Notes: generated by a model not told the origin, from the letters alone. Shown: positions 8,663 through 25,147, numbered from the stretch's first letter. The stretch is DNA of 64,000 nucleotides from a bacterium (GCA_965203325.1 OZ241875.1:3424001-3488000), one strand, 5' to 3'. Numbers and translations are program-made.

Positions 8663-9334
8663 TCATCCACCCGCGAGCTTCGCGGCTTCACGAATCGCGT
8701 GGGTCAGGCGGCCTACGGTAGTCGAAGGGTTTCCGTATGGATTACCCCCCTGTTCTCGGTTTTCAAGCTGTCTTTTACTGCGCTCTTCGGCATCTTCGAC
8801 TCGGGCGAGCATCTCGTCGCAGTCGGGCGTTTTTGCACCACTCATGTCATATTCCGGTCGCAGGGATTCAAGGATTTTTTGCATCTCATGGCGATCTTCG
8901 GCCCGGTCGTGATCAGTCTCGTGCAGAACCAGCCAAAGCTCGAAACATGGGTTGGAACGGCCGACGTGGACGCCGCCTCGTTCGCAGAGCGTCACCGCTT
9001 CGTCGAAACGAGGATGCTCGTCTCTGTCGAATACCGCCCAGACCTGATCGTTTTCCTCGAACGAATCCTTTTTCCTGCGACTGCGTGGGTCGAGTCCCAG
9101 AGATCGTGCGAGTTTGACGGCATTTTCTGCGATGGTGTAGGGAACGCCTATAGCAGGGTTAGTTTCTACTTCTACTAGGGTGTCTCTATAGGCGCGTTTG
9201 AGCGCACCGAAATAGGCTGGTTCCGTCTTCTTTCCCTCACAAAACAGGATGAAGCGGCGTTTCGGTTCCTGTATATAGCGGCGACGCCTAGGGTTCGGGA
9301 CGTCGCGCCAAGCGGCCCTAGTTCGCCGCGCCAA
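8663..9334 (-). CDS. RloB-family (TOPRIM-like, AbiLii-like) protein
   Basis: ILFCEGKKTEPAYF, WAVFDRD, SNPCFELW, GNPSTTV. Overlaps the end of the AAA gene; probable TTG start 9334. Confidence 0.85.
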   Translation of the reverse strand: MARRTRAAWRDVPNPRRRRYIQEPKRRFILFCEGKKTEPAYFGALKRAYRDTLVEVETNPAIGVPYTIAENAVKLARSLGLDPRSRRKKDSFEENDQVWAVFDRDEHPRFDEAVTLCERGGVHVGRSNPCFELWLVLHETDHDRAEDRHEMQKILESLRPEYDMSGAKTPDCDEMLARVEDAEERSKRQLENREQGGNPYGNPSTTVGRLTHAIREAAKLAGG

Positions 9335-10598
9335 GAGTTGAACCAGTAGCCGTGATGGAATCGATGAAGGGAACTCCACCGTAGCGGCCCTGCAGATATC
9401 CTTTTTCGATATTATCGCCCTTGCGGGTTCGGATGTCGGTCAAGGGATAGAGTCGGGTAGCGCCTTCGTTGTCTTTTTCAATGAACCAGACCTCATCACG
9501 CCGGAGTAAGGATGATTTCAGCAAGTTGGTGTCGTGGGTCGTCGCAATGAGTTGCGCGCCTTTGGGATTGCTCTCCCGCGAGCAGAATAGTTTCAGCACG
9601 GCTTCAGCAGCTTGGGTGTGCAGGCTGGCGTCCAGTTCATCAATGAACAAGGGCGTGCCCTCGTCGAGCGCGTGAAATGCGAGAGCAAGCACGATCAATA
9701 ACCGCCGCGTTCCAGCGCTCTCACTGTCCAACTCGAGATAGAACGGCTCACTACCCTGCCCACGATGGGCGAGTTCGATGGTAACATGCTTATCTTTAAC
9801 CTCCGGTGGTTCGGAGCCGCCTATCTTCTTGAACAACGTGAATAGTTCCCTTTGAATTCCTTGCATTTCTTCTGAAAGTTCGGATTCTCTTTGTCTGTAG
9901 CCGATGACCCCGGTATCAATCTTTCCAAGGAAGTCGATTACCCGGTCATCCTGTTTTTCCTCGGCCAATCGTGATGAAATCGCCTCCTTGGGGACGCCGA
10001 TGCTCCAGTCGGCGCGGAGGGATCTAAAGTACCCGAATACTTCTGAAAGCTGTTCGTGGCCGTTTTGGGCCGTCGCGGAAACGAACAGGCTATTGGGTCT
10101 CGTCAAGCCCGCGATGACTTTGTTTTGTCCCTTCAATCCGCGTCCGAAACGAAATTCATCCCCGGTGCGCTCGAACAACGTCTGGCGATGGGACTTGGGA
10201 AAGGCGTACAGCCATTCGGACTCGAACGCCGTATCTGAGACCTCGAAGCCGTAGTGGTGCCGCACGCCGTCGATGAGAAAATCGATATCGAAACGAGTCG
10301 GTAGCCGGGGGCCGTCGTCATCGAGCCTGAAAGGATGGCGCGGAACATCGCCATCTGCTTCCCAGTGGGTTTGTGAGTGCAACACCATGCCTCGCATGGT
10401 GCTTATCGCGTCAATGAGGTTGCTCTTGCCCGACGCATTTGCGCCGTAGATGACGACCGCCGGTAAAACCGAGCCACTCGGAGCCGCCGCGCAGTCGATG
10501 AGTTCTTCTTGCCGCTCTTTCAGCGAAGACGCTGCAAGCGACAATTCCTGGTAATCGCGTATGGAGAGATGGTTGGAGACGCCGAAGTGAAGCAACAT
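9318..10598 (-). CDS. AAA_21/ABC-type ATPase, RloA/AbiLi-like
   Basis: Walker A YGANASGKS, signature ESAGT, Walker B LFIDE, LIATTHD, RRDEVWF, YLQGRYGG. Confidence 0.9.
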   Translation of the reverse strand: MLLHFGVSNHLSIRDYQELSLAASSLKERQEELIDCAAAPSGSVLPAVVIYGANASGKSNLIDAISTMRGMVLHSQTHWEADGDVPRHPFRLDDDGPRLPTRFDIDFLIDGVRHHYGFEVSDTAFESEWLYAFPKSHRQTLFERTGDEFRFGRGLKGQNKVIAGLTRPNSLFVSATAQNGHEQLSEVFGYFRSLRADWSIGVPKEAISSRLAEEKQDDRVIDFLGKIDTGVIGYRQRESELSEEMQGIQRELFTLFKKIGGSEPPEVKDKHVTIELAHRGQGSEPFYLELDSESAGTRRLLIVLALAFHALDEGTPLFIDELDASLHTQAAEAVLKLFCSRESNPKGAQLIATTHDTNLLKSSLLRRDEVWFIEKDNEGATRLYPLTDIRTRKGDNIEKGYLQGRYGGVPFIDSITATGSTLGAAN

Positions 10599-10648
10599 GA
10601 CAATTATCTCCTTTTTTTGACATTTAATATGCCAAGAAAAAGGTTAAT

Positions 10649-10673
10649 TTGAGAAAATATAACATTTTATCAA
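10649..10673. promoter_or_regulatory. Imperfect inverted repeat upstream of the RloA-like gene (candidate operator)
   Basis: TTGAGAAAAT-ataac-ATTTTATCAA, 9/10 complementary arms, in the AT-rich upstream region. Confidence 0.4.
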
Positions 10674-10787
10674 GTAAAATTGCAATATCTTTGCATCGAA
10701 CCTGCCCCTGCGCGCCTTCCTCGCGTTTTGGGTTCGACCCTCAAAGGGGAGTATTTTCGCCGACGACCGGAGAGGGATTTTGCTCTT

Positions 10788-10815
10788 GCAGGGACAGCTC
10801 GCGAGCCGCCCCTAC
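10788..10815. repeat. Degenerate GTAG-type REP palindrome
   Basis: gcagggacagctcgcgagccgcccctac, related to the copy at 12360. Confidence 0.55.
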
Positions 10816-10841
10816 GGGTTCAGAAATATCCGTGAGCCGAC

Positions 10842-10902
10842 CGGGCGGACACTTTCGAGCTTCTCTTCCTCAGGAAGCTCGACACCCCTGCAAAACCCTA
10901 CA
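10842..10902. repeat. 61-bp direct repeat, copy 1, with internal hairpin
   Basis: cgggcggacactttcgagcttctcttcctcaggaagctcgacacccctgcaaaaccctaca; 60/61 identical to 13773-13833. Confidence 0.85.
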
Positions 10903-11016
10903 CCCCGTCACCCCTCAATACCCCGAATCCACCGGGACCCGGCGCTGTCGCCATGCCTCCACCCGTTCGGAGCCGATCGAACATCTCAAGATCCGGGATC
11001 AGTGAGGAATGGCGGT

Positions 11017-11100
11017 TGTAGGGACAACCCCTCCTCGGGGTTGTCCGGCCCTCCGTGGTTGTCCTTTACAGGATAGTTGTCATCAGGACAGGCACGGCTA
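11017..11100. repeat. Degenerate GTAG-type REP doublet
   Basis: gtagggacaacccc...ggggttgtcc, then cgtggttgtcc and ggacaggcac remnants. Confidence 0.45.
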
Positions 11101-11192
11101 CGGGATCATCACGCCGCCGCCCGGACGCATAGTTTGCTTCTTCAACAGCCCCGTCCGGGGGAGAGTGGAATGAAAACTCCTGAATCGGGAGG

Positions 11193-11987
11193 CTAGATCG
11201 AGAGCCAGCCGCCGTCGATCGCCAGCGTGTGGCCGGTCACCATCGAGGAGGCGGGGCTCGCGAGGTAGAGGATGCCGCCGGCGATTTCCTCGGGCTCGCC
11301 GAGCCGGCCGAGCGGCGTGCGCGCCTCGATCTCGTCCACGAGCTCGGGCCGCCGCCGGCGCAGGTCGGCGCCGAGTTCGGTGTAGAAGAAGGTCGGCGCG
11401 ATGGCGTTCACCCGGACCCCCCGGCCCGCCCATTCGGCGGCGAGCGAGCGGGTCATGTTGACGATCGCCCCCTTGGTCGCCTGGTAGGGGACGTGGGGAA
11501 TCATCGGGTTCGCCCGAAACCCCATGATCGAGGCGATCGAGACGATCCGCCCCTCCCCCTGGGCCAGCATGTGCTTCGCCGCCCGGCGCGCGCAGACGAA
11601 CGGGGCGGTCATGTTGACCTCGACCACCTCGTCCCAGTCCTCGTCGGGAAACGACTCGGCCGGTCCGGGCCGTATGATGCCGGCATTGTTGATCAGGATG
11701 TGAAGCCCGCCGAACCGCTCGGCCGCTTGGTCGATCACGGTGTCGATGCGCTTGCGGTCGGCGACGTCGAGCCGCCAGGACTCGGCGACCCCGCCGGCGC
11801 CGCGGATCTCCGCCGTGACCCGCTCGGCCGCCGCCGTATCGATATCGGTGACCGCCACATGCGCCCCCGCGCCGGCGAGCGCGAGCGCAGCGATTCGTCC
11901 CAGCCCGCCGCCCGCCCCGGTGACCAGTGCGCTGTCGCCGTCGATGCGGAACAGATCCTCGATCGAAACCTCCTCGAAGCCCGCCAT
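11193..11987 (-). CDS. Short-chain dehydrogenase/reductase
   Basis: TGAGGGLG, NNAG, YQATK, VRVNAIAP, GHTLAIDGGW. Confidence 0.93.
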   Translation of the reverse strand: MAGFEEVSIEDLFRIDGDSALVTGAGGGLGRIAALALAGAGAHVAVTDIDTAAAERVTAEIRGAGGVAESWRLDVADRKRIDTVIDQAAERFGGLHILINNAGIIRPGPAESFPDEDWDEVVEVNMTAPFVCARRAAKHMLAQGEGRIVSIASIMGFRANPMIPHVPYQATKGAIVNMTRSLAAEWAGRGVRVNAIAPTFFYTELGADLRRRRPELVDEIEARTPLGRLGEPEEIAGGILYLASPASSMVTGHTLAIDGGWLSI

Positions 11988-12359
11988 GGCCGCCTCCCTG
12001 AAGACCCCTCCGGTCCCGCATCCCCCCGCCGCTACTCATTCGCGCGGTCAGGTGAGATTTGCGCCCAGATACGCCCCCGCAGAAACCGGTGTTGTTCGGA
12101 GGTTCCTTGCCGGTCTCGCCCAGCGCGGAACTCCGGGGCCGTATCGCCTCTCACCCTGACATTTCGGGATCGATTGAGCAAGGAGCAGCCTGGTGAGAGA
12201 GGAACGCGGCCTTCGATTCGACAAGGAGATCGGCGCCTGGTTCAGGAAGTCGAAGCAGGTTGCCCAGGCGGAGAGGAAACCCTGAGTCCGGCGCATCACG
12301 GGAAAACGCGGTAACGGTAATTGCGGGGAAATGCGGTCTTTTGCGGTTTTATGGAAGCT

Positions 12360-12389
12360 GTAGGGGCGGCTCGCGAGCCGCCCGCTACG
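12360..12389. repeat. GTAG-type REP palindrome
   Basis: gtaggggcggctcgcgagccgcccgctac: GTAG head plus perfect GGGCGGCTCGCGAGCCGCCC palindrome. Confidence 0.7.
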
Positions 12390-12497
12390 GGTTGCGTTCT
12401 CACCGATGCGACGCGGCGGATTGGAGCCGTGCCGGGAAAATGATAGGATTATCTGCTCCACGAGGCTCCACCCCAGACCCCACAAGGCAAACGGACG

Positions 12498-12946
12498 ATG
12501 CAAAGCATCGAGAGACTCGCACCGGGATTCCTCCTTTGCGTATCAACGGGAGTCCTGCTTCTCTTCGGGTATGTTGCGATCCAATGTTCGCTGACCGGCA
12601 TGGAAGCATATGGTTTCCAGACTATTGCGCCCTTGGTGGGCTTGGGGGTTCATACATTTTAGGTCGTCAGGCGGCCGTCACCGGGCCTCATGCGCGCTCC
12701 GCCTTCAGGCGTCTTGTTTCCCTGTATCGTAGTATAGGCCGCGTGGCGAACATCATCGCCGAGGAAGAGCGCGAAGACGACGCGACGAAAATGAAGATCA
12801 TCGAAGCAATCGTCAGAGAACAGATAACCACGGCGAATGACGCGCTGGCGGATTGGCAGGACATCGTTCCTGAATCGGTGGAGGAACTGGGGCAAGAACT
12901 AACAAGAGAGACAACTCAGGAGTCGGGAGGACGGGCAAATGGATGA
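12498..12946 (+). pseudogene. Frameshifted (or mis-sequenced) gene for a ~149-aa protein with two N-terminal TM helices and a helical cytoplasmic domain
   Basis: ATG 12498 gives MQSIERLAPGFLLCVSTGVLLLFGYVAI...FQTIAPLVGLG, then stops. The -1 frame continues GSYILGRQ...PHARSAFRRLVSLY...WQDIVPE to 12946. One extra base at or before the G5 run (12644-12648) joins them. Confidence 0.55.
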
Positions 12947-13394
12947 TCCGATTCGAGGGAAAGTCGCCAAGATTCTCAACGCGCGCGAAGTCGCCATCAA
13001 CCTGGGCAGCGAGCAAGGGGTGCGCCCCGGCATGTATTTCGACGTCGTCGCCCGGTATGAGGACATCGTGGATCCCGACACGAACGAATCGCTGGGCGCC
13101 GTCGAACGCCCGAAAATCAGGGTGAAAATCACCTGGGTGCAGGAAAAGCTGTCCCTGGCTTCCACCTATAGAAGCCGGGAAGTCAACGTCGGGGGAGATA
13201 TTCATGTACGGGATTTCTCCAAAGCTCTACCGGATTTTTCCAGAGCTCTGATGCCGGCCAAATGGGTGAAAAAATACGAGACGTTCAAGACAAAAGAAGA
13301 ACCTGCCGAGCCTCTCGATGAGCAGAAAAGTCTCGTGAAGGTGGGCGACCCCGTCGTCCAGGTGTTGCCGGTCGCCGAACAAGAGCGCGTATAA
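12939..13394 (+). CDS. Hypothetical protein with FlgT C-terminal-like beta-barrel pattern
   Basis: GKVAKILNAREVAINLGSEQGVRPGMYFDV...IVDPDTNESLG. GGAGG RBS; overlaps the upstream gene stop. Confidence 0.7.
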   Translation: MDDPIRGKVAKILNAREVAINLGSEQGVRPGMYFDVVARYEDIVDPDTNESLGAVERPKIRVKITWVQEKLSLASTYRSREVNVGGDIHVRDFSKALPDFSRALMPAKWVKKYETFKTKEEPAEPLDEQKSLVKVGDPVVQVLPVAEQERV

Positions 13395-13453
13395 CCGAGG
13401 CGAACGAGGAGTTTGTAAGTGCTTCGCCTGATGAAGAAACGGAGGAGTAAACA

Positions 13454-13588
13454 ATGGCCAAAGAGCCGATACCACCGCCCTCGAAACGCTTGGTTCGGGT
13501 TGGGGATGGCGTATCGTCCAAGCCCAGGAATTTCGCCAAACCCAAACCGCCTCCGGCTCCCCCACCCAAGAAGCGGGCGAATGGATGA
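13454..13588 (+). CDS. 44-aa Pro/Lys-rich small ORF (below the ORF-track size)
   Basis: GGAGGAG RBS then ATG: MAKEPIPPPSKRLVRVGDGVSSKPRNFAKPKPPPAPPPKKRANG*. Stop overlaps the next start. Confidence 0.45.
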   Translation: MAKEPIPPPSKRLVRVGDGVSSKPRNFAKPKPPPAPPPKKRANG

Positions 13589-13763
13589 CCCGATAATCGC
13601 CGAGGTACGCGCCGCGCGGGATGCGCACGCGGCGCGCTTCGGTTACGACGTGGCGGAAATTTTCCGGGACATTCGGGCCATGCAGGACGCGTCCGGTTCC
13701 GAATACGTCCGCCATCCCGCACGCCGCGTTACCACAATGCCCGACGATTCCCCATCGCCGTAA
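13581..13763 (+). CDS. 60-aa hypothetical protein, type often seen as partner of PIN-domain toxins
   Basis: MDDPIIAEVRAARDAHAARFGYDVAEIFRDIR. No toxin seen adjacent. Confidence 0.6.
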   Translation: MDDPIIAEVRAARDAHAARFGYDVAEIFRDIRAMQDASGSEYVRHPARRVTTMPDDSPSP

Positions 13764-13772
13764 TGCCCGGCG

Positions 13773-13833
13773 CGGGCGGACACTTTCGAGCTTCTCTTCC
13801 TCAGGAAGCTCGACACCCCTACAAAACCCTACA
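13773..13833. repeat. 61-bp direct repeat, copy 2
   Basis: Matches 10842-10902 with one mismatch. Confidence 0.85.
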
Positions 13834-13907
13834 AACCCCGGCAATCCCTCCCCGGGGCTGTTGAATAACCTCTCAAAGGGGGGGTGATGACTCCGCCCCC
13901 ATGAAAC

Positions 13908-14399
13908 CTAGCGGTCTATCGGGTCGCGCGGGTCGAACTCGGTTCCCCACACGCCCCGGCGGTATCGCCTGGCGAGGTTTTCGGCCTCTATCAGCTCCTT
14001 CCGGTAGCGCACGTTGGGGTGTTTCACGAGGGCGCGGCCCAGACCCCGCAACACCACGAGCGCGTTCACGAGGCCGCCTTCTTCGAGGAAGACGTAATAA
14101 AGCGTCTGTCCTGAGGCGTCCACGGGTTTTTCGTCGATTTCGAGGCTCACCGTCCGGTTCTCGATGAGGCGCTTTAAGTACGCATGGGCCTGGCTCGCGC
14201 CCGGCGCGCCGGGAGCGGGGGCGGACACGCCGATCAGGGCGGAGCGCAGCCCGCCGCCGAGTTGAAAGCTCGCCCCGTCGTAGACCTTGGTGACGCGCGC
14301 CTTGAGGCGTCTTGGGCGTTCGGCTCCCTGGGCCGGCGCGGGCGCGTACGCAAGCGTCATCAGGACGAGCGCGCACAGAAAGAGAGTCGTTTTTTTCAT
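13908..14399 (-). CDS. Secreted thermonuclease (SNase) homologue with degenerate active site
   Basis: Signal peptide ending APAQG; RVTKVYDG, LVNALVVLRGLG, AENLARRYRRGVW. Confidence 0.85.
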   Translation of the reverse strand: MKKTTLFLCALVLMTLAYAPAPAQGAERPRRLKARVTKVYDGASFQLGGGLRSALIGVSAPAPGAPGASQAHAYLKRLIENRTVSLEIDEKPVDASGQTLYYVFLEEGGLVNALVVLRGLGRALVKHPNVRYRKELIEAENLARRYRRGVWGTEFDPRDPIDR

Positions 14400-14604
14400 C
14401 CTCGCCTCATTCGTGTTTTATCGGGGATAGCCCCGGAATCCTTCGCGTTCTCATGGAAATATCCACGTCATGGGAGCTTGTTTATACCACAGGGCGAGGC
14501 GGTGCGCTTCGAGCCGAACTTGCGTGCAGGGTGGGGCGCGGGGACAATGAGTATCGGAAATTGACGCCGGAGCATGGAGATACTTACAAAGGAGCAGGCC
14601 GGCA

Positions 14605-15135
14605 TTGGCGGATGCGAGCGAGAAGCGGATATTCATCATCGCTGGGCCGAACGGCGCGGGCAAGACGACCTTCGCCACGGAATTTCTGCCGAACGAGGCG
14701 GATTGCCCTTATTTTATCAACACGGATCTAATCGCCGCCGGATTGAATCCGTTCGGTCCCGATCGGGTTGGCGTGCGTGCGGGCAGGCTGGTCCTGAACC
14801 AAATCCGCGAACACGCGCTGCGAGGAGAGAGCTTCGCCTTCGAGACGACGTTGAGCGGGCGGAATTATGCGCGCCATATTCCACGCTGGCGGGAGCAGGG
14901 CTACCGTGTCAAGCTGTTCTTCCTGCGGCTGCCGACGCCCGAGATGGCGGTCGCGCGCGTCGCGCAGCGCGTTCGGGAGGGTGGCCACGATGTGCCCGAG
15001 GGGGTGATCCGAAGACGGTACGACGCCGGCCGGCGCAACTTCGAGCAAATCTATCGGGGTTTGGTCGACGGATGGGCTTTGTATGATAATTCGGGTGATG
15101 AGCCTGAATTGCTGGAGGAGGAGTCGAGGGAATGA
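14605..15135 (+). CDS. Zeta-toxin-like/AAA_33 P-loop NTPase
   Basis: IIAGPNGAGKTTF, FINTDLIA, SFAFETTLSG, RVREGGHDVPE, YDNS. TTG start. Confidence 0.88.
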   Translation: MADASEKRIFIIAGPNGAGKTTFATEFLPNEADCPYFINTDLIAAGLNPFGPDRVGVRAGRLVLNQIREHALRGESFAFETTLSGRNYARHIPRWREQGYRVKLFFLRLPTPEMAVARVAQRVREGGHDVPEGVIRRRYDAGRRNFEQIYRGLVDGWALYDNSGDEPELLEEESRE

Positions 15136-19736: not shown

Positions 19737-20771
19737 ATGAACATGGCGGAAACCATGCGGGCGGCGGTGTATTACCGAAACGACGACGTGCGGATCGAGA
19801 AGATGGCGAAGCCCCGCGCCGGGGCGGGCGAGCTTTTGGTCGAGACGCGCGCGAGCGGCATCTGCGGAAGCGACGTAATGGAGTGGTACCGGGTAAAGAG
19901 CGCGCCGCGCGTCTTGGGCCATGAGGTGACGGGCGTCGTCGCGCAAGCGGGCGAGGGCGTGGAAGGCTTCCGGGTAGGTGATCGCGTCTGCGTCACCCAT
20001 CACGTTCCCTGTAATGCCTGCGCGCATTGCCTGCGCGGAGACCACACGGCTTGTGAGATGCTGAAAGCTACGAATTTCGACCCGGGCGGTTTCGCCGAGT
20101 TCATCCGCTTACCCGCCGCCAACGTGGATCGGGGGATGTTCCGCCTGCCCGATGAGGTTTCGGACGATGCGGGCGTGTTCGTCGAGCCTTTGGGCTGCGT
20201 CCTGCGCGGCTGGCGGCGCTTTCGTATGACGCCGGGCCTCTCCGTCCTCGTGGTGGGAAGCGGGATGTCGGGCCTGTTACACGTGCAGGCGGCGCGCATC
20301 CTGGGAGCGGGAGCCATATTCGCGGCGGACGTTCATCCCTGGCGCCTCAAGGCCGCCGAGCGGTTCGGCGCGCATGCGCTGCCCCCGTGCGAAGATATGA
20401 CCGAGGCCTTACGGGAGGCGAACGACGGCCGCCTGGCGGATCGCGTCGTCCTGTGCGCGGGGGCGCCCGAGGCTCTTAAGACGTCCCTCGCGTGCGTCGC
20501 GACCTGCGGCGTCTTGCAGCTTTTCGCCCCCACGCCGCCGGGATACCGCCCTGAAATCGACCTCAACCGAATCTGGAGCGAGCAGATCGCCATCACCACC
20601 ACTTACGGCGCAGCGCCGCTCGATCTCGAAGAGGCGCTCGCGCTCATACGCGCCGGCCGCATCGAGGTCGAGGAGATGGTCACCCACAGGCTCCCGCTCG
20701 CGCAGGCGCAGGAGGGCTTCCGCCTCGTCGCCGAGGCGGGCGAATCACTGAAGGTGGTGCTCAAACCCTGA
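19737..20771 (+). CDS. Zn-dependent alcohol/polyol dehydrogenase
   Basis: GICGSD, LGHE, structural Zn CxxCxxC...C, GSGMSG. Confidence 0.9.
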   Translation: MNMAETMRAAVYYRNDDVRIEKMAKPRAGAGELLVETRASGICGSDVMEWYRVKSAPRVLGHEVTGVVAQAGEGVEGFRVGDRVCVTHHVPCNACAHCLRGDHTACEMLKATNFDPGGFAEFIRLPAANVDRGMFRLPDEVSDDAGVFVEPLGCVLRGWRRFRMTPGLSVLVVGSGMSGLLHVQAARILGAGAIFAADVHPWRLKAAERFGAHALPPCEDMTEALREANDGRLADRVVLCAGAPEALKTSLACVATCGVLQLFAPTPPGYRPEIDLNRIWSEQIAITTTYGAAPLDLEEALALIRAGRIEVEEMVTHRLPLAQAQEGFRLVAEAGESLKVVLKP

Positions 20772-20786
20772 TCGCAAGCCCGAATC

Positions 20787-20815
20787 TTGCGGTCGGGCGC
20801 GAAAGAGATTAGTAT
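20787..20815 (+). promoter_or_regulatory. sigma70-like promoter, unit 1
   Basis: TTGCGG-17 bp-TAGTAT. Hexamers conserved with units 2-4 while the spacer differs. Confidence 0.6.
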
Positions 20816-20905
20816 TTTTCTGAGAAAGCGAGCAACGCAGGGCAGGACGCTCTGGGTCCACGAGGTTGTTCGGTTTTTGTTGGTGGACTCGCAAGGAGGA
20901 AGGAA

Positions 20906-21166
20906 GTGACGACTTTTCAAATCGCGACGCTGGTGGCATTGGGCATCCAGAGCGCAATAGCTCTTGGTGTAGGAAGCGTTCAGTGTATCCTGATATGGAA
21001 GGGCTTGAGACAGATGGAGCGCGCCTCGGAGTTCAGGGAAAGAGAGAGCGCTAGACGGCACGAGGAAGTCATGATGGAGGGTGCGAGGCGGCACGAAGAG
21101 AACATGAAAAAACATGAGCAGTCCATGACCGCGCTCAAGACGCTCATCGAGCGGACAGGGAAGTAA
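20906..21166 (+). CDS. Small TM plus coiled-coil protein, copy 1 (86 aa, three HE[E/Q] repeats)
   Basis: AAGGAGG RBS, GTG start, hydrophobic N-terminus, ends SMTALKTLIERTGK. Confidence 0.8.
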   Translation: MTTFQIATLVALGIQSAIALGVGSVQCILIWKGLRQMERASEFRERESARRHEEVMMEGARRHEENMKKHEQSMTALKTLIERTGK

Positions 21167-21191
21167 CCTCTACTTCCCGCCGGCTACTCCG

Positions 21192-21222
21192 CCCCCGTCC
21201 TCCGGGACGGGGGTTTTCTGTT
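21192..21222 (+). terminator. Intrinsic terminator, unit 1
   Basis: CCCCCGTCC-TCCG-GGACGGGGG then TTTTCTGTT. Confidence 0.8.
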
Positions 21223-21305
21223 GCTCGATTGCTCTCTGCCCATCATCTGTTTTGGGAATCTCTCCAGGTGGCGGTTAGGCCTTGAGTCGCGCGAAGAGCC
21301 GGATA

Positions 21306-21334
21306 TTGCGGGGGAGCGCGAAAGGGGATAGTGT
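21306..21334 (+). promoter_or_regulatory. sigma70-like promoter, unit 2
   Basis: TTGCGG-17 bp-TAGTGT. Confidence 0.6.
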
Positions 21335-21414
21335 TATATCTAGGATTGCGGGCCATGGAACGCGAGGCTGTGGAGTTCGCAGGGTGATAATCAAAGACCC
21401 GAATGGGGTGGGTA

Positions 21415-21621
21415 ATGACGACTTTTCAAATCGCGACGCTGGTGGCATTGGGCATTCAGAGCGCAATAGCTCTTGGTGTAGGAAGCGTTCAGTGTATCCT
21501 GATATGGAAGGGCTTGAGGCAGATGGAGCGCGCCTCGGAGTTCAGGGAAAGAGAGGGCGCAAGACGGCACGAGGAGTCCATGACCGCGCTCAAGACGCTC
21601 ATCGAGCGGACAGGGAAGTAA
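21415..21621 (+). CDS. Small TM plus coiled-coil protein, copy 2 (68 aa, one HEE repeat)
   Basis: Paralogue of copy 1, 18 aa shorter in frame. Confidence 0.8.
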   Translation: MTTFQIATLVALGIQSAIALGVGSVQCILIWKGLRQMERASEFREREGARRHEESMTALKTLIERTGK

Positions 21622-21646
21622 CCTCTACTTCCCGCCGGCTACTCCG

Positions 21647-21677
21647 CCCCCGTCCTCCGGGACGGGGGTTTTCTGTT
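21647..21677 (+). terminator. Intrinsic terminator, unit 2
   Basis: Identical hairpin plus T tract. Confidence 0.8.
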
Positions 21678-21760
21678 GCTCGATTGTTCTCTGCCCATCA
21701 TCTGTTTTGGGAATCTCTCCAGGTGGCGGTTAGGCCTTGAGTCGCGCGAAGAGCCGGATA

Positions 21761-21789
21761 TTGCGGGGGAGCGCGAAAGGGGATAGTGT
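21761..21789 (+). promoter_or_regulatory. sigma70-like promoter, unit 3
   Basis: TTGCGG-17 bp-TAGTGT. Confidence 0.6.
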
Positions 21790-21868
21790 TATATTCAGGA
21801 TTGCGGGCCATGGAACGCGAGGCCATGTAGTTCGCAGGGTGAAAATCAAGGACCCGAAAGGGAACAAG

Positions 21869-22150
21869 ATGACGACTTTTCAAATCGCGACGCTGGTGGC
21901 ATTGGGCATTCAGAGCGCAATAGCTCTTGGTGTAGGAAGCGTTCAGTGTATCCTGATATGGAAGGGCTTGAGGCAGATGGAGCGCGCCTCGGAGTTCAGG
22001 GAAAGAGAGAGCGCTAGACGGCACGAGGAAGTCATGAGGGAGAGCGCGAGGCGGCACGAAGAGACCATGAAAAATCATGAGGAAAACATGAAAAAACATG
22101 AGGAATCGATGACCGCGCTCAAGACGCTCATCGAGCGGACAGGGAAGTAA
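21869..22150 (+). CDS. Small TM plus coiled-coil protein, copy 3 (93 aa, four HEE repeats)
   Basis: RRHEEVMRESA-RRHEETM-KNHEENM-KKHEESM. Confidence 0.8.
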   Translation: MTTFQIATLVALGIQSAIALGVGSVQCILIWKGLRQMERASEFRERESARRHEEVMRESARRHEETMKNHEENMKKHEESMTALKTLIERTGK

Positions 22151-22175
22151 CCTCTACTTCCCGCCGGCTACTCCG

Positions 22176-22206
22176 CCCCCGTCCTCCGGGACGGGGGTTT
22201 TCTGTT
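22176..22206 (+). terminator. Intrinsic terminator, unit 3
   Basis: Identical hairpin plus T tract. Confidence 0.8.
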
Positions 22207-22289
22207 GCTCGATGGTTCTCTGCCCATCATCTGTTTTGGGAATCTCTGAAGATGGCGGTTAGGCCTTGAGTCGCGCGAAGAGCCGGATA

Positions 22290-22318
22290 TTGCGGGGGAG
22301 CGCGAAAGGGGATAGTGT
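22290..22318 (+). promoter_or_regulatory. sigma70-like promoter, unit 4
   Basis: TTGCGG-17 bp-TAGTGT. Confidence 0.6.
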
Positions 22319-22398
22319 TATATTCAGGGTTGCGGGCCATGGGACGCGAGGCCGTGGAGTTCGCCGGGCGAATACAAAAGACCCGAGAGGAGAGAAAA

Positions 22399-22593
22399 GT
22401 GACGACTTTTCAAATCGCAACGCTCGGGTTCTACGCCGTGCAGTCCCTCATCGGCCTCGCACAGTGCGCCCTCATCTTGATGGGCTTGAGGCAGATGAGC
22501 CGCGCCTCGGAGTTCAGGGAAAGAGAGGGCGCAAGACGGCACGAGGAGTCCATGACCGCGCTCAAGACGCTCATCGAGCGGACAGGGAAGTAA
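22399..22593 (+). CDS. Small TM plus coiled-coil protein, copy 4 (64 aa, divergent TM, one HEE repeat)
   Basis: GAGGAG RBS, GTG start: MTTFQIATLGFYAVQSLIGLAQCALILMGLRQM...TGK. Confidence 0.8.
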   Translation: MTTFQIATLGFYAVQSLIGLAQCALILMGLRQMSRASEFREREGARRHEESMTALKTLIERTGK

Positions 22594-22618
22594 CCTCTAC
22601 TTCCCGCCGGCTATTCCG

Positions 22619-22649
22619 CCCCCGTCCTCCGGGACGGGGGTTTTCTGTT
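22619..22649 (+). terminator. Intrinsic terminator, unit 4
   Basis: Identical hairpin plus T tract; convergent with the recD2 stop at 22667. Confidence 0.8.
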
Positions 22650-22666
22650 GCATCGCCGATTGTCCG

Positions 22667-25147
22667 CTACTTATCCACGGGGTGGTAGGTCAGTTCGCCC
22701 CCGGGCGGGGAATCGTCCTCGGTCGCTTCGTCCTCATAAAGAGCATCCGGCGGGGCGTCTTCCGTGAACTGCGTGTCATCCGCATCCGCATCCTGCGGGG
22801 CGGGGGAGGGCTCCTTGAGAAGCGGGGCGAGTTTCGCCTCGCGGCGGATTCTTTCCGGCAGGCCGCTCCAGCGCCTCCTCACGCGCGCGTTTCCTATCGC
22901 CATGCCGAGCGCCTTTTTCGACCCGACGAACACCGCCAGACGCTTCGCCCGCGTGAGGGCGGTGTAGACGAGGTTTCTCTGCAGCATCGGGAAGTGCTGG
23001 GTGTGGAGCGGGATGACGACGGCGGGGTATTCGCTCCCCTGGCTCTTGTGGACGGTGATGGCGTAGGCGTGCATCACCTCATCGAGCGCGCCGCGCGTAT
23101 ATTCGACGACGTTCGAATCGAAAGCGGCGCGAATGCTCCCCTCCTCGGGCGCGACGCTCTTGACGACGCCGATGTCGCCGTTGAACACGTCCTTGTCGTA
23201 GTTGTTGCGCACCTGGATGAGCTTGTCCCCGGTGCGGAACGTCCGGCCGCCGCTCTGTAGCGCGGGCGCGCTTCCGGCGGGATTGAGCGCCTCCTGTAAG
23301 CGCGCGTTCAGGCTCTGCACGCCGAGCACGCCGCGCTGCATGGGGGAGATGACCTGGAGGTCGGCGATGGCGTCGATCTTGAACCGATCGGGAATGCGCT
23401 CGCGGCACAGTTCGATGATGAGGTCGGCGCAGCGCTCCGCCTCGCTCTCCTCGATGAAGTAATAGTCGAGCGGCGCGTCTTCTTTTTCCCCCTTGCCGTT
23501 TCGGGGCATCTCGCCGCGGTTCACGCGGTGGGCGTTCTCGACGATCAGGCTCTCCTGCGCCTGGCGGAAGACCTCGGTGAGCCTCACGACGGGCGGGGTC
23601 TCTGAGGTGATGACGTCGCTCAGGACGTTGCCGGGTCCCACGGAGGGGAGCTGGTCTACGTCGCCCACCAGGACGAGCGTCGCCGGGTCGGGCACCGCGC
23701 GCAGCAGGTGGGCCGTCAGGTGTACGTCGAGCATCGAGGCCTCATCGATGATCACGATGTCGCCGGTGAGCGGGTTTTCCGCATCGCGGGTGAAGCCGCC
23801 CGAGTGCCAGCTGTATTCGAGCAGCCTGTGGATGGTGGCCGCCTCGTGGCCTGTGACTTCAGAAAGACGCTTGGCCGCCCGGCCCGTGGGCGCGCCGAGG
23901 ATGACCTGGAGGCCGAGTTTCGTGTAGAGGTTCGTGACGGCGCTCACGATGGTCGTCTTGCCGGTGCCGGGGCCGCCCGTGACGATAAGCACCTTCTGCG
24001 TGAGCGCGCCCTCTATCGCCGCGCCCTGATCCTTCGTCGCCTTGCCGCCTTCGAGCGCGCGCCGGGCGAGATGACCGAGGCGCTCTTTCGTCGTACTCCC
24101 GGGCGCTCCCTGTCCCCGCATGGCGGCTTCGAGACGCGCCTCGTCGCGCGTCGTGCGGATGAGCGCGGCGAGACGGCGGGCGACCTCGCATTCCGCGGCG
24201 TAGAGCGGGCGCGCGTAGACGCGCTTGCCCTCGGCCGAAGCGAGGTTCTCGACCATGTTCGCCGATTCGATCACCACCGAGCCGCCCCGGCCCAGGTTCT
24301 CGAGAACGGGAGCGAGGGCGTCGACTTCGGTCTCGAGCATCTCGACGGCCGTCTCCATCAGGTCGCCGTAGGGCAGAAAGCAGTGGCCCTCGCGCTCGGC
24401 GAGCTGGTTCAGGACGTAGACGGCTCCCGCCGCGAGGCGTTTGGGAGAGTCAACGGGAATGCCCAGTTGCTGCGCGATTCGGTCCGCGCTCTTGAAGCCC
24501 ACGCCGTGAATCTCTGACGCCAGGCGATAGGGGTCTTCGCGCAGAATCCGTATGGACGCCTCGCCGTAGGTTCTCAGGATTTTCTCGGACAGATGGAGCG
24601 GGACGTCGTATTGACGGAGAAAAAGCATGATCTCCTTGACTTCGCTCTGGCTCTTCCAGCTCTCGACGATGGCTTCGAGCTTCTTCGCGCCCAGCCCGGC
24701 GATTTCCGTTAAGCGCTCGGGTTGGTTGTCGAGGATTTCGAGGGATTTCTCGCCGAAGCGCGTAACGATTCTCCTGGCGAGAGCGGGGCCGATGTTCTTC
24801 ACGATGCCGGACGCCAGGTACTTTTCGATTCCCTCGATTGTCGTGGGCGCCAGCGGGCGGGCTAGTTCTGCATGAAACTGGCGGCCGAACCTGGGATGAT
24901 CCTTCCAGCCGCCCTCGAAGCGGACGCGTTCGCCCTCGCGGATGGAGGAGAGATAGCCCACAACGGCCACGCGGGGGAAATCCTCGTTGTCCGGCTGGAC
25001 GAGCAGGACGCTGTAGCCGGTGTCCTCCGCGCGGAAGCGGATCCGCTCCACCGCGCCGGTCAGTTCGGTGCCGTCTTGCGGGAAGAGGCCCGCCTGGGGA
25101 GGAGGGGTACTTCTTCCGGGGCGTGGTGTTCTCGGTTTGCGCGTCAT
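22667..25147 (-). CDS. recD2: ATP-dependent RecD-like helicase RecD2
   Basis: N-terminal OB/HhH region, TGGPGTGKTT, APTGRAAKR, DEASM, GDVDQLPSV, TVHKSQGSEY, YTALTRA. Confidence 0.95.
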   Translation of the reverse strand: MTRKPRTPRPGRSTPPPQAGLFPQDGTELTGAVERIRFRAEDTGYSVLLVQPDNEDFPRVAVVGYLSSIREGERVRFEGGWKDHPRFGRQFHAELARPLAPTTIEGIEKYLASGIVKNIGPALARRIVTRFGEKSLEILDNQPERLTEIAGLGAKKLEAIVESWKSQSEVKEIMLFLRQYDVPLHLSEKILRTYGEASIRILREDPYRLASEIHGVGFKSADRIAQQLGIPVDSPKRLAAGAVYVLNQLAEREGHCFLPYGDLMETAVEMLETEVDALAPVLENLGRGGSVVIESANMVENLASAEGKRVYARPLYAAECEVARRLAALIRTTRDEARLEAAMRGQGAPGSTTKERLGHLARRALEGGKATKDQGAAIEGALTQKVLIVTGGPGTGKTTIVSAVTNLYTKLGLQVILGAPTGRAAKRLSEVTGHEAATIHRLLEYSWHSGGFTRDAENPLTGDIVIIDEASMLDVHLTAHLLRAVPDPATLVLVGDVDQLPSVGPGNVLSDVITSETPPVVRLTEVFRQAQESLIVENAHRVNRGEMPRNGKGEKEDAPLDYYFIEESEAERCADLIIELCRERIPDRFKIDAIADLQVISPMQRGVLGVQSLNARLQEALNPAGSAPALQSGGRTFRTGDKLIQVRNNYDKDVFNGDIGVVKSVAPEEGSIRAAFDSNVVEYTRGALDEVMHAYAITVHKSQGSEYPAVVIPLHTQHFPMLQRNLVYTALTRAKRLAVFVGSKKALGMAIGNARVRRRWSGLPERIRREAKLAPLLKEPSPAPQDADADDTQFTEDAPPDALYEDEATEDDSPPGGELTYHPVDK

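Follow-up and report, generated by a model that had tools for sequence, protein, structure and literature searches.

Organization of the array locus

The window analyzed here is a single stretch of 64,000 nucleotides from a Nitrospinota bacterium. Between a zinc-type alcohol dehydrogenase (ADH) gene and recD2, it carries four head-to-tail units, as the earlier note had described; direct reading of the sequence, the ORF list, and a four-way alignment agree on this layout. The features are listed below, with positions counted from the first letter of the window.

19737..20771, + strand: zinc-type alcohol dehydrogenase gene, upstream flank (Pfam ADH_N / ADH_zinc_N; syntenic in 9/9 relatives)
20787..20815, + strand: unit 1 promoter-like element (TTGCGG at 20787-20792, 17 bp, TAGTAT at 20810-20815)
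20816..20905, + strand: unit 1 leader, type L1, 90 nt (predicted hairpins, motif GTCCACGAGG, GGAGG Shine-Dalgarno)
20906..21166, + strand: ORF 1, 86 aa, GTG start (B-type TM helix, 3 HxxxM motifs)
21191..21220, + strand: unit 1 intrinsic terminator (GC hairpin at 21191-21214, UCCG loop, then T tract)
21306..21334, + strand: unit 2 promoter-like element (TTGCGG at 21306, 17 bp, TAGTGT at 21329)
21335..21414, + strand: unit 2 leader, type L2, 80 nt (hairpin CCATGG-AACGCGAGG-CTGTGG)
21355-21387, + strand: upstream ORF in the unit 2 leader, 10 codons, MEREAVEFAG
21415..21621, + strand: ORF 2, 68 aa, ATG start (B-type TM helix, 1 HxxxM motif)
21646..21675, + strand: unit 2 intrinsic terminator (hairpin at 21646-21669; terminator scan and fold)
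21761..21789, + strand: unit 3 promoter-like element (TTGCGG at 21761, 17 bp, TAGTGT at 21784)
21790..21868, + strand: unit 3 leader, type L2, 79 nt
21869..22150, + strand: ORF 3, 93 aa, ATG start (B-type TM helix, 4 HxxxM motifs)
22175..22204, + strand: unit 3 intrinsic terminator (hairpin at 22175-22198; terminator scan)
22290..22318, + strand: unit 4 promoter-like element (TTGCGG at 22290, 17 bp, TAGTGT at 22313)
22319..22398, + strand: unit 4 leader, type L2, 80 nt
22399..22593, + strand: ORF 4, 64 aa, GTG start (A-type TM helix, 1 HxxxM motif)
22618..22647, + strand: unit 4 intrinsic terminator (hairpin at 22618-22641; terminator scan)
22667..25147, - strand: recD2 helicase gene, downstream flank, convergent with the array (Pfam AAA_30, HHH_RecD2, SH3_13; syntenic in 9/9 relatives)

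The mean column identity of the four units is 79% in the four-way alignment, and unit 2 shares 81-94% identity with the other units in a self-search of the genome. The differences in ORF length (12, 21, and 75 nt) are all in frame, as had been claimed. Unit 3 contains internal repeats of 33 bp and 21 bp, reported by TRF, whose output lacks the ∼500-bp period of the array. The A-type TM helix of ORF 4 is the commoner type outside the array. The absence of an integrase, transposase, or reverse transcriptase nearby was borne out in a scan, from 9.3 to 36.3 kb, of 28 ORFs no shorter than 150 amino acids, chosen from 52 listed.

Synteny, duplication history, and selection

The order aldolase–ADH–array–recD2 recurs in all nine congeners fetched, with one to five copies each. 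This synteny and the variation in copy number among the nine relatives, several of them single-contig assemblies, rule out the assembly artifact that the earlier note had considered. Contigs of three short-read DNA runs end inside the array and allow no copy count.

In the alignment, the spacers of units 2–4 contain a degenerate copy of the last ∼35 nt of the ADH gene. A decayed ADH 3′ end is also found in the array spacers of genomes G010 (16 nt matching exactly), G012, and G016, whereas the spacers of G007, G020, and G022 contain a copy of the recD2 3′ end. The ADH-derived and recD2-derived spacers indicate independent duplications. The units mix two TM types and two leader types in shuffled combinations. 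With its traceable breakpoints, the array is a clean natural case of tandem duplication that happened repeatedly and independently, and it also displays the shuffling of promoter-leader, TM, and coil modules.

The four intact ORFs (86, 68, 93, and 64 aa) are real genes, with a median dN/dS of 0.14 for 45 pairs of A-type orthologues. By this measure, the proteins of the array family are under purifying, not diversifying, selection. The family had been described as expanding and diversifying; copy number does change among relatives, from one to five, but the selection is not of the diversifying kind. Likewise, the units are self-contained transcription units, as judged from their promoter hexamers and terminators, but they are monocistronic, so that the term mini-operon is a misnomer. 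Taken together, the locus is very probably a tandem array that is conserved in the genus but variable in copy number. In this genome it consists of four monocistronic genes, each with a putative sigma-70-type promoter, a leader of 79-90 nt, a Shine-Dalgarno sequence, an ORF, and an intrinsic terminator, and it very probably grew by unequal recombination.

Putative promoters, leaders, and terminators

All four units possess the TTGCGG–17 bp–TAGT(A/G)T element reported before, and the more general pattern TTG(C/T)nn–17 bp–TA(G/A)nnT is kept in 31/31 units from 10 genomes. The array hexamers match the sigma-70 consensus at 3/6 (−35) and 3-4/6 (−10) positions, and a scan for this consensus returned 0 promoters on either strand, missing the sense promoter-like elements too. 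The candidate promoter is thus supported because hexamers and spacing are conserved, not because they are near consensus. A TGnTATAT stretch resembling an extended −10 directly follows the promoter-like element of unit 2.

In units 1–4, the start codon lies 90, 80, 79, and 80 nt past the −10 box, in line with the leader of about 75-90 nt noted earlier. The leaders of the 31 units fall into two types, L1 (n = 8) and L2 (n = 23). Unit 1 does keep both hexamers and the 17-bp spacing, but its leader, previously regarded as diverged, is by sequence a member of the second conserved type (L1; 8/31 units).

Single-sequence folds of the leaders are no more stable than those of shuffles, with the exception of unit 4 (z = −2.35). 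When the 23 L2 and the 8 L1 leaders were folded as alignments, hairpin pairs were kept through one-sided changes only, with 0 compensatory pairs in either type. A leader RNA structure is possible, as far as these comparisons go. In the predicted folds, the strong Shine-Dalgarno sequences are left unsequestered. A search of Rfam with positions 20000-23500 at E ≤ 1 gave 0 matches. No antisense promoter or terminator was detected at the array, by an insensitive scan that overlooks the sense promoter as well.

The leader motif CTCCACGAG occurs at 118 sites in the genome, 6 of them within 160 nt upstream of family genes, and the complete promoter-plus-leader pattern matches only family genes or one truncated copy. 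The motif is missing from family copies in other phyla and therefore reflects lineage-specific regulation rather than the function of the family.

Ten terminator-like sites were found, compared with 1.8 ± 1.3 in shuffles. All four units end in an intrinsic terminator, and the hairpins are identical, as had been observed; their fold (−23.4 kcal/mol, z = −3.2) was equaled by 0/200 shuffles. A 270-nt contig from a sponge metatranscriptome library spans positions 20894-21107 at ∼94% identity, a weak hint that the array is transcribed.

Family size and distribution

The earlier note had proposed a family of paralogous proteins with a TM segment and a coiled coil, and a search for copies in this genome and its relatives. 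A paralogous TM-plus-helix family is supported, but it is far larger than the array. The host genome contains 16-17 copies (16 ORFs at E ≤ 8e-17 and one more at 3.5e-5, among 59,996 frames). The family is present in 22/22 genomes of the host genus and in 0/19 sister-genus genomes searched. Of the clusters formed at 50% identity, 581 match the family at a threshold of E ≤ 1e-3, and 161 still do so at E ≤ 1e-10. It occurs in metagenome-assembled genomes (MAGs) titled Alphaproteobacteria, Binatia, Acidobacteriota, Entotheonella, and Deltaproteobacteria, that is, in at least five phylum-level groups besides Nitrospinota. Unrelated uncultured bacteria harbor 10-30 copies per genome; outside the host genus, MAGs G041, G045, and G042 gave 25, 10, and 9 matches, and one locus (L088) features a tandem array of 5 copies. 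JGI metagenome contigs yielded 10 relatives at 9 loci and no more, viral contigs yielded 11 pattern matches and 0 relatives, and tblastn of a dispersed paralogue against phage and plasmid collections found no match.

Twelve dispersed copies of the host genome, and likewise 32 loci of other phyla, lie among unrelated metabolic or housekeeping genes. No conserved neighbor was found among 130 ORFs near these copies or among 110 ORFs near 32 loci of other phyla. Two dispersed copies sit on an island with an MmeI-type restriction-modification (RM) gene, an integrase, and a MazE-like gene.

Among 21 runs listed with the stretch of the window, 9 bear the label sponge metagenome; they come from 3/9 studies. 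The multi-copy carriers are apparently several unrelated, sponge-associated bacteria. Occurrence in one Nitrospinota genus without its sister genera, together with other phyla, points to habitat-linked transfer and retention.

That the proteins belong to no recognized family holds for every library searched. Pfam contains no family that the array ORFs match at cut-off (best DUF4446, 15.7 bits versus 27.4), and NCBIfam gave 0 matches for them. Among 26 family members, no Pfam family was matched by more than three, no PHROG by more than one, and no PADLOC model by more than two, and the best match to PDB sequences had E = 0.5. XhlA (PF10779) reached 13.5 bits versus a cut-off of 34.7, and Holin_BhlA (PF10960) gave no match at E ≤ 0.1 in the 26 members. 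In the ESM Atlas, the best scores were 0.85 and 0.81, below the mark of 0.9; the closest language-model neighbors (scores of 0.80-0.85) are phage hypotheticals and a cluster with 28% Holin_BhlA members, a holin-like cluster that serves as a lead only. No paper describing the family was found in the open-access literature searched. This is a large family of hundreds of clusters (the 581 at E ≤ 1e-3) without a name in any curated library searched.

Protein architecture and His/Met repeats

The proteins of the family are 50 to 268 aa long (64-93 aa in the array). They start with a short, acidic N terminus, M-T-(T/E)-(F/Y)-(E/Q)-x-A-(T/S)-L, predicted to lie outside the membrane. Next come a single TM helix, in which a Gln (in many cases Gln-Cys) is conserved, and a basic juxtamembrane stretch. 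The remainder is a predicted cytoplasmic α-helix built from 7- or 11-residue repeats (R-H-E-E-x-M), whose number varies and in which His and Met are one helical turn apart, and a conserved C-terminal cap, M-x-A-L-x-x-L-I-E-R-T. In the middle of the proteins, the number and even the type of the repeats vary. Among 146 representatives (the best 150 of the cluster matches minus 4 already in the set), the TM Gln is found in 124, a G-hydrophobic-x-x-M/L motif in 120, and a LIERT-like motif within the last 30 residues in 118.

All of 82 representatives have one TM helix. On average, its N side contains 0.34 K+R and 2.0 D+E, whereas the 15 residues past the helix contain 3.5 K+R, and the C side is the richer in K+R in 81/82. 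According to the positive-inside rule, the K+R-rich side of a TM helix faces the cytoplasm; the charge distribution therefore indicates an N-out, C-in orientation. Only about 5-15 residues are predicted to lie outside the inner membrane, with the long helix in the cytoplasm. No signal peptide was detected in the family proteins, whose N side averages 0.34 K+R. The M-T-x-F motif starts at residue 1 in 75/82 representatives. An N-terminal extension from the conserved upstream ATG that would flip the topology was considered and discarded: this ATG is in frame and open in only 2/23 L2 leaders, in frame but stopped in 10/23, and out of frame in 11/23.

The AF2 model of ORF 3 is a single helix spanning residues 3-92 (pLDDT 85.5). 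Its homo-dimer prediction scored 0.06 (mark 0.42), which counts neither for nor against a dimer.

A Met is located at +4 of 69% of the His residues in the tails, versus a background of 5.7%, and HxxxM occurs 314 times, versus 26.9 ± 4.6 in shuffles. The spacing from His to His peaks at +11 and +7. At least one HxxxM is present in 143/146 representatives and at least two in 113/146, the former figure being biased upwards because the profile was built from HxxxM-rich sequences. Proteins of the array contain 1-4 such motifs, and up to 10 are found in the family. Two of the 16 clear members in the host genome lack HxxxM, and the weak 17th has AGIREAS heptads instead; the motif is therefore not universal.

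Possible function of the family

Reasoning from the repeats and by analogy, we tentatively propose, as our best guess but with low confidence, that the family comprises membrane-tethered coils that bind soft metals and whose capacity depends on repeat number and gene dosage. The His/Met pairs would line one face of the helix, and this face would bind soft, Cu(I)-like metal ions at the inner face of the membrane, held either on one helix or between the helices of an oligomer. Binding capacity would follow from the repeats per protein and from dosage through tandem and dispersed copies, and the proteins would buffer metals at the membrane to which they are tethered, or serve there as a hand-over station, a cytoplasmic-side counterpart of the periplasmic "molecular sponge" SilE/PcoE. 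Tandem amplification is a route to metal tolerance in the case of yeast CUP1. HxxxM and MxxxM are the Cu-binding motifs of the importer CcoA (PMC6362234). According to PMC5008109, SilE and PcoE bind Ag+ and Cu via repeated HxxM/MxxH pairs (i to i+3 or i+4) that lie on one helix face, and the helices form upon binding.

Against the metal-binding proposal, no metal-related gene is a conserved neighbor of the 12 dispersed copies or the 32 loci of other phyla, and Pfam searches with the array ORFs and the 26 members revealed no homology to SilE/PcoE. Met/His sites are typical of the periplasm, and cytoplasmic Cu(I) is usually held by Cys; the Met/His tail of the family is predicted to be cytoplasmic. 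His and Met could also be core residues of a coiled coil (positions a/d) with a pH-sensing or partner-binding role. The wider picture, in which a family shared horizontally within the sponge holobiont uses cytoplasmic His/Met helices as a tunable metal sponge or hand-over station, its capacity tuned in evolution via repeats and tandem amplification, would amount to a new class of bacterial metal-buffering protein and is unlikely as a whole; in this picture, the conserved Gln-Cys...Met TM helix might even form an oligomeric ion path.

Alternatively, the LIERT cap or the TM Gln(-Cys) may bind a conserved partner, the repeat helix being a rigid arm of variable length that sets the distance from the inner membrane; YhcB, YtxH, and the ribosome-binding YqjD, ElaB, and YgaM are likewise small, anchored coiled-coil proteins. 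We consider such a scaffold somewhat unlikely. In its favor, conservation across phyla is highest in the cap and in the TM/juxtamembrane segment, the middle varies in repeat number and type, the AF2 model is one continuous helix, and lengths change in whole 7- or 11-residue steps. However, no partner gene is linked to the family, and neither the conservation of His and Met in the repeats nor the need for 16-33 copies per genome is explained. A stress-protective hydrophilin (LEA- or YtxH-like), whose anchored amphipathic helix would stabilize the inner membrane or proteins under osmotic, oxidative, or pH stress with His as a pH switch, is quite improbable. The composition of the tail (A 17%, R 14%, E 12%, Q 7%, few large hydrophobics), the dominant 11-residue periodicity, and the N-terminal TM helix followed by one long helix would agree with it, as would the sub-threshold Pfam matches, all of the same architecture (DUF4446, for instance). 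Strict HxxxM pairing and a conserved cap are nevertheless foreign to LEA-type repeats, membership in such a family was not detectable, and no stress-regulon context was seen near the dispersed copies or the loci of other phyla.

Type I toxins are small and hydrophobic, usually under 60 aa, and E. coli ldr/rdl are tandem long direct repeats that encode them; the family proteins each have one TM helix, but most of their length is a polar helix. In a similar manner, the polar Gln/Cys TM helix might oligomerize and permeabilize the inner membrane as in a toxin or holin. Translation would be kept in check by the leader together with an antisense or small RNA yet to be seen, and the copies would spread as selfish or defense-linked modules. 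The earlier note had suggested such toxin- or holin-like action, as well as oligomeric stalks, which the proteins may form. The small size of the proteins, their TM helix at the N terminus and their charged tail, stand-alone units with their own promoter, the 79-90 nt leader with its conserved hairpin and motif, the tandem and dispersed copies, the phage hypotheticals and Holin_BhlA-bearing cluster nearest in the language model (below the 0.9 mark, a lead only), and the two island copies would all be in keeping with a toxin or holin. Yet the long helix and cap are conserved across phyla under purifying selection, which would be unusual if the TM helix were the active part, and members reach 150-250 aa. 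Holin_BhlA gave no match and XhlA stayed below cut-off; phage or plasmid relatives are absent from the collections searched; and the neighbors are metabolic or housekeeping genes, not a lysis cassette. The strong Shine-Dalgarno sequences are free in the predicted folds, and no antisense promoter or terminator was detected, by a scan that also misses the sense promoter. We judge a toxin or holin unlikely. Least of all do we expect the surface decoys or phage-receptor blockers suggested in the earlier note, which would diversify under phage pressure. Copy number and coil length do differ between close relatives, and TM and leader types are shuffled, but the charge distribution (81/82 representatives) places the long helix in the cytoplasm; in a diderm cell, only some 5-15 residues would protrude beyond the inner membrane, and there is no signal peptide. 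The dN/dS of 0.14 and the lack of a defense-family match consistent across members also oppose this role, which is extremely improbable.

Should the His/Met repeats bind metal, as tentatively proposed, symbionts of a host that accumulates metals would have a new means of buffering them. Even as toxins or scaffolds, the proteins would mark a large blind spot in the annotation of small proteins.

Comparison with known systems

The ldr/rdl and TxpA/BsrG-type toxin loci consist of multi-copy repeat units of ∼500 bp, each of which encodes a small TM protein behind a long leader and a promoter of its own. The array units resemble ldr/rdl in all these respects, whereas the family proteins differ from type I toxins by their greater length, their conserved structured tail, their occurrence in several phyla, and purifying selection. 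BhlA and XhlA share one TM helix plus a coiled coil and a size of about 70-100 aa with the array family, and the language model places them in weak proximity to it (0.80-0.84). The family genes, in contrast, lie outside a phage or lysis-cassette context and have no relatives in the phage collections. YhcB (DUF1043), YtxH (DUF948), and DUF4446 correspond in architecture and size, but are usually single-copy and possess neither HxxxM repeats nor a LIERT cap. Yeast CUP1, like the array, is a copy-number-variable, head-to-tail small gene with a promoter per copy; it encodes a eukaryotic, soluble, Cys-rich metallothionein, so that the analogy is one of logic only.

The importers CcoA and CalT also feature HxxxM on a helix, a proven Cu-binding determinant in CcoA, where one motif lies within one of the 12 TM helices of an MFS transporter (PMC6362234). 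In the array family, by contrast, the repeats are soluble and belong to a single-pass protein without homology to CcoA. SilE/PcoE, as described in PMC5008109, are soluble proteins that carry a signal peptide for export, stay disordered unless metal is present, and have i+3 pairs, whereas the array family is membrane-anchored, lacks a signal peptide, and has a predicted cytoplasmic tail with i+4 pairs. Both are small proteins in which pairs of His and Met, separated by about one helical turn, recur on one helix face, and SilE motif 2 (HxxMxxxHxxMxx) shows the heptad spacing of His seen in HEExMKxHEExM of the family. PMC5008109 also describes a metal capacity of SilE/PcoE that scales with the number of motifs, and a corresponding scaling is proposed for the array family.

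Architecture of the array

Positions 20500–22900 hold four head-to-tail units with a mean column identity of 79%, as seen from the sequence, the ORF listing, and a four-way alignment. The array and its flanking genes, assigned by Pfam, are arranged as follows.

19737–20771, + strand: zinc-type alcohol dehydrogenase (ADH) gene, upstream flank
20787, + strand: start of TTGCGG of unit 1 (sequence read)
21306, + strand: start of TTGCGG of unit 2 (sequence read)
21761, + strand: start of TTGCGG of unit 3 (sequence read)
22290, + strand: start of TTGCGG of unit 4 (sequence read)
22667–25147, − strand: recD2, downstream flank

In each unit, a second hexamer lies exactly 17 bp past TTGCGG (TAGTAT in unit 1, TAGTGT in units 2–4). 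It is followed by a leader (90, 80, 79, and 80 nt in units 1–4), a purine-rich Shine–Dalgarno stretch, and an intact ORF (86, 68, 93, and 64 amino acids). The ORFs differ in length by 12, 21, and 75 nt, always in frame, and unit 3 carries internal repeats of 33 bp and 21 bp. All units close with the same GC hairpin, which has a UCCG loop and is trailed by a T tract. This hairpin folds with −23.4 kcal/mol (z = −3.2), and a scan found 10 terminator-like sites (versus 1.8 ± 1.3 in shuffled sequences), among which each of the four unit terminators appears twice. The earlier note had described four tandem units, each with its own hexamers, leader, ORF, and terminator, and sequence, ORFs, alignment, and terminator scan bear this out. 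An Rfam scan of the array region gave no match.

As that note had also stated, no integrase, transposase, or reverse transcriptase is encoded nearby, namely among 28 scanned ORFs of at least 150 amino acids (chosen out of 52 listed) at 9.3–36.3 kb. Within 20600–22600, the G+C content of the array is 55–58% compared with 65–70% in both flanking genes, which is partly due to non-coding spacers and Lys/Met/Glu-rich repeats; the low value is compatible with an old foreign origin of the array. Further upstream, 9318–15135 contains genes for an AAA_21 (AbiEii-like) ATPase and a zeta-toxin-like kinase amid several ORFs without a Pfam match, and may represent a small defense or toxin–antitoxin patch about 6–11 kb from the array.

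Conservation of the locus, promoter, and leaders

The window sits on one single 4.39-Mb contig. The order DeoC-type aldolase, ADH, array, and recD2 is the same in all nine congener genomes fetched, at 87.5–96.5% identity for ADH and 91–97.5% for RecD2, with 3, 5, 4, 3, 3, 1, 4, 2, and 2 array copies. The array is thus real and old, and not an assembly artifact. Short-read DNA contigs from three runs break within the array and therefore provide no copy count.

The evidence for a promoter upstream of each unit is a phylogenetic footprint of 31 units from 10 genomes. The best conserved non-coding block reads CCGAATCTTGCGG...GCGAAAG...TAG(T/A/G)(G/A)T, and TTG(C/T)nn-17 bp-TA(G/A)nnT is kept in 31/31 units. 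A simple sigma-70 scan returned 0 promoters on both strands because the array hexamers are only about half consensus.

Two conserved leader types are found. Type L1 (8/31 units, including unit 1 of the window) features small hairpins and GTCCACGAGG, and type L2 (23/31) a CCATGG-loop-CC(G/A)TGG hairpin. The predicted pairs of both types are kept through one-sided changes only, with 0 compensatory pairs. The CCATGG hairpin of L2 contains a conserved upstream ATG (unit 2, ORF at 21355–21387; unit 3, 21810–21830; unit 4, ATG at 22339). In 10/23 L2 leaders, this ATG opens a 10-codon ORF (MEREAVEFAG-like) that closes before the main start and may encode a leader peptide or be a mere by-product of the conserved hairpin. 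In only 2/23 does it continue in frame into the coding sequence, and an N-terminal extension from this ATG, which would reverse the topology predicted for the protein, was rejected on this count.

Growth and shuffling of the array

In the alignment, the inter-unit spacer of this genome and of three congeners (G010, G012, and G016) includes a decayed copy of the final ∼35 nt of the ADH gene, with a 16-nt exact match to the gene end in G010. In three other congeners (G007, G020, and G022), the spacer instead includes a copy of the sequence past the last unit, i.e. the 3′ end of recD2, with matches of up to 89 nt at 93% identity. Duplication breakpoints therefore differed between lineages, which means more than one round of amplification at this locus.

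The units are mosaics, in which TM helix type, leader type, and repeat number are combined differently among neighbors and close relatives. TM type A reads GFYAVQSLIGLAQC...LILMGL; type B, which reads VALGIQSAIALGVGSVQC...IWKGL, is longer by four residues. The number of additional HEExMKx repeats ranges from zero to five. In G012, the array is separated from recD2 by a 3.8-kb insert (locus L040:7963–11690), which carries a frameshifted transposase of the IS1595 family alongside three unknown ORFs of 463, 192, and 79 amino acids. The intergenic site between array and recD2 is therefore also an insertion spot.

Selection and expression

For ten A-type orthologues (45 pairs; N-terminal 48 plus C-terminal 14 codons), the median dN/dS is 0.14 at a mean dS of 0.67. 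The plus frame is therefore translated and constrained, and selection is purifying, in contrast to the diversifying family envisaged earlier. A weak hint of array transcription comes from a sponge metatranscriptome library, in which one 270-nt contig matches 20894–21107 at about 94% identity and extends into a related coil, DNA carry-over being possible.

Anatomy of the protein

Motifs were counted in 146 representatives out of the 150 best of 581 profile matches, and in alignments. The N terminus follows M-T-(T/E)-(F/Y)-(E/Q)-x-A-(T/S)-L; of the 82 representatives with this motif, 75 have it at residue 1. A single hydrophobic segment is present in 145/146; it contains a conserved Gln in 124/146, with Cys directly after it in 58. 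The TM segment is succeeded by G-hydrophobic-x-x-M/L, a basic stretch, and a polar helical tail (Ala 17%, Arg 14%, Glu 12%, Gln 7%). A LIERT-like motif, the LIERT cap, lies within the final 30 residues in 118/146, with a median of 6 residues beyond it.

On average, the N side carries 0.34 Lys + Arg and 2.0 Asp + Glu, and the first 15 residues past the TM segment carry 3.5 Lys + Arg; Lys + Arg are in excess on the C side in 81/82 representatives. By the positive-inside rule, the Lys/Arg-rich side of a TM helix faces the cytoplasm. The short N terminus is therefore predicted to be periplasmic and the long helix cytoplasmic. In an AlphaFold2 model, ORF 3 forms one helix over residues 3–92 (pLDDT 85.5).

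The tail is marked by His with Met at +4 (HxxxM), which holds for 69% of tail His against a background of 5.7%, yields 314 motifs versus 26.9 ± 4.6 in shuffles, and occurs at least once in 143/146 representatives and at least twice in 113/146 (maximum 10). These per-representative counts are biased upwards, as the profile used to pick the sample was itself rich in HxxxM. Distances from one His to the next have peaks at 11 (25%) and 7 (14%). Array ORFs 1–4 contain 3, 1, 4, and 1 HxxxM motifs. In a few members, the repeat is instead AGIREAS, QSEMTMK, or a unit rich in E, R, and S.

Copies in the genome and spread of the family

When the 59,996 stop-to-stop frames in this genome that span at least 40 amino acids were searched with the profile, 16 members emerged at E ≤ 8e-17, and a divergent 17th at 3.5e-5. 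Four of these genes form the array, two are a tandem pair, and the rest are single and dispersed. A scan of 130 ORFs showed the dispersed copies to lie among unrelated metabolic genes. Five dispersed copies share the promoter-plus-leader pattern TTGAC-17-GA(A/G)ACT...CTCCACGAG, which throughout the genome matches nothing but family genes and a single truncated copy (L031:3845–3920; genome 963027–963100). The latter retains an identical promoter/leader and the first six codons (MTVFES) before unrelated sequence, 1.1 kb upstream of a full copy at genome position 964198. Locus L031 (genome 959183–974940) comprises an island of an MmeI-type restriction–modification gene, a phage-type integrase, and a MazE-like gene, flanked by two family members. 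The 17th member (L038:5001–5492, − strand; genome 2851778–2852269) keeps the family TM and juxtamembrane segments, and four AGIREAS heptads replace the His/Met repeats; it adjoins a CbtA-type cobalt transporter subunit gene.

Within the genus, the family occurs in 22/22 genomes (1–33 matches each; 21/22 at E ≤ 1e-5). None of 19 genomes from the taxonomic family's eight other genera contains it, and elsewhere in the phylum it was found in 1/9 genomes searched. Among 1.84 billion cluster representatives, the profile matched 581 proteins of 50–268 amino acids at E ≤ 1e-3, of which 161 reach E ≤ 1e-10, and species-representative genomes yielded 96 relatives. Record titles name Nitrospinota/Nitrospinaceae, Alphaproteobacteria including Defluviicoccus, Candidatus Binatia/Binatota, Acidobacteriota/Terriglobia, Candidatus Entotheonella, and deltaproteobacterial MAGs. 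Viral contigs, phage records, and plasmids contained no relatives, and JGI metagenome contigs only 10.

Genomes of other phyla are multi-copy too (25, 10, and 9 matches in three of them). An alphaproteobacterial MAG carries a 5-copy tandem array (L088:2875–5513) with near-identical spacers, in which every copy begins VSEFEIATVAFQ, providing independent evidence for the tendency of the family to form arrays; two further loci (L069 and L077) hold 3-copy arrays. Copies in other phyla use host-type promoters of their own, have short leaders that lack the CCACGAG motif, and have no conserved neighbor (110 ORFs scanned). At five loci, a DNA helicase gene adjoins a family gene: RecD2 (22667–25147) in the window, and RecG, UvrD/PcrA, DnaB, and SNF2-type helicases at L090, L091, L082, and L099. 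That this exceeds chance expectation is an impression gained after the fact.

The window stretch is listed in 21 runs, of which 9 rows (3/9 studies) carry a sponge metagenome label, and PMC10227082 names Entotheonella as a symbiont of sponges. The patchy distribution over several phyla suggests habitat-linked transfer.

Possible function

The family genes are autonomous, conserved, and constrained, and their products are single-pass proteins with a repeat helix; both repeats and genes vary in number. As the most likely reading, we tentatively propose a buffer or hand-over protein for soft metals, tethered to the membrane on the cytoplasmic face. His and Met, spaced one turn apart, would share one helix face. 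Pairs of this kind are proven Cu or Ag ligands in the HxxxM/MxxxM motifs of CcoA (PMC6362234) and in the HxxM/MxxH repeats of SilE/PcoE, whose capacity grows as motifs are added and whose helix folds upon binding (PMC5008109). In a metal buffer, repeat number and gene dosage would tune metal capacity. However, neighbor scans found metal genes not to be linked to family loci, and some members lack HxxxM. Moreover, Met/His metal chemistry is more typical of the periplasm, and His and Met may just occupy the core of a coiled coil.

Alternatively, the protein could be a scaffold or spacer whose LIERT cap binds a partner, which is doubtful but deserves consideration, and there is a modest chance of some other function outside the readings discussed here. 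A type I toxin-like or holin-like membrane permeabilizer seems improbable, and a LEA/YtxH-like stress protectant quite unlikely. Surface decoys or phage-receptor blockers, named among other examples in the earlier note, do not fit the predicted topology, and we regard a decoy role as very improbable. From that interpretation, the units and the family stand as real and undescribed; the surface and phage-receptor ideas and diversifying selection do not.

Comparison with known systems

Pfam, NCBIfam, PHROGs, PADLOC, and PDB sequences did not recognize the family, the sole source name seen for its proteins is "hypothetical protein," and no description was found within the open-access literature searched, consistent with the proposed undescribed TM-plus-coil family. 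The membership tests run did not place the proteins in any known system compared. In architecture, they are similar to the small anchored coiled-coil proteins YhcB, YtxH, and DUF4446; in motif logic, to SilE/PcoE; and in genomic layout, to tandem type I toxin repeats. We regard the family as small bitopic coiled-coil proteins that are unusual in three respects: the His/Met repeat signature, the strong multiplication that includes recurrent tandem arrays, and the patchy multi-phylum distribution.
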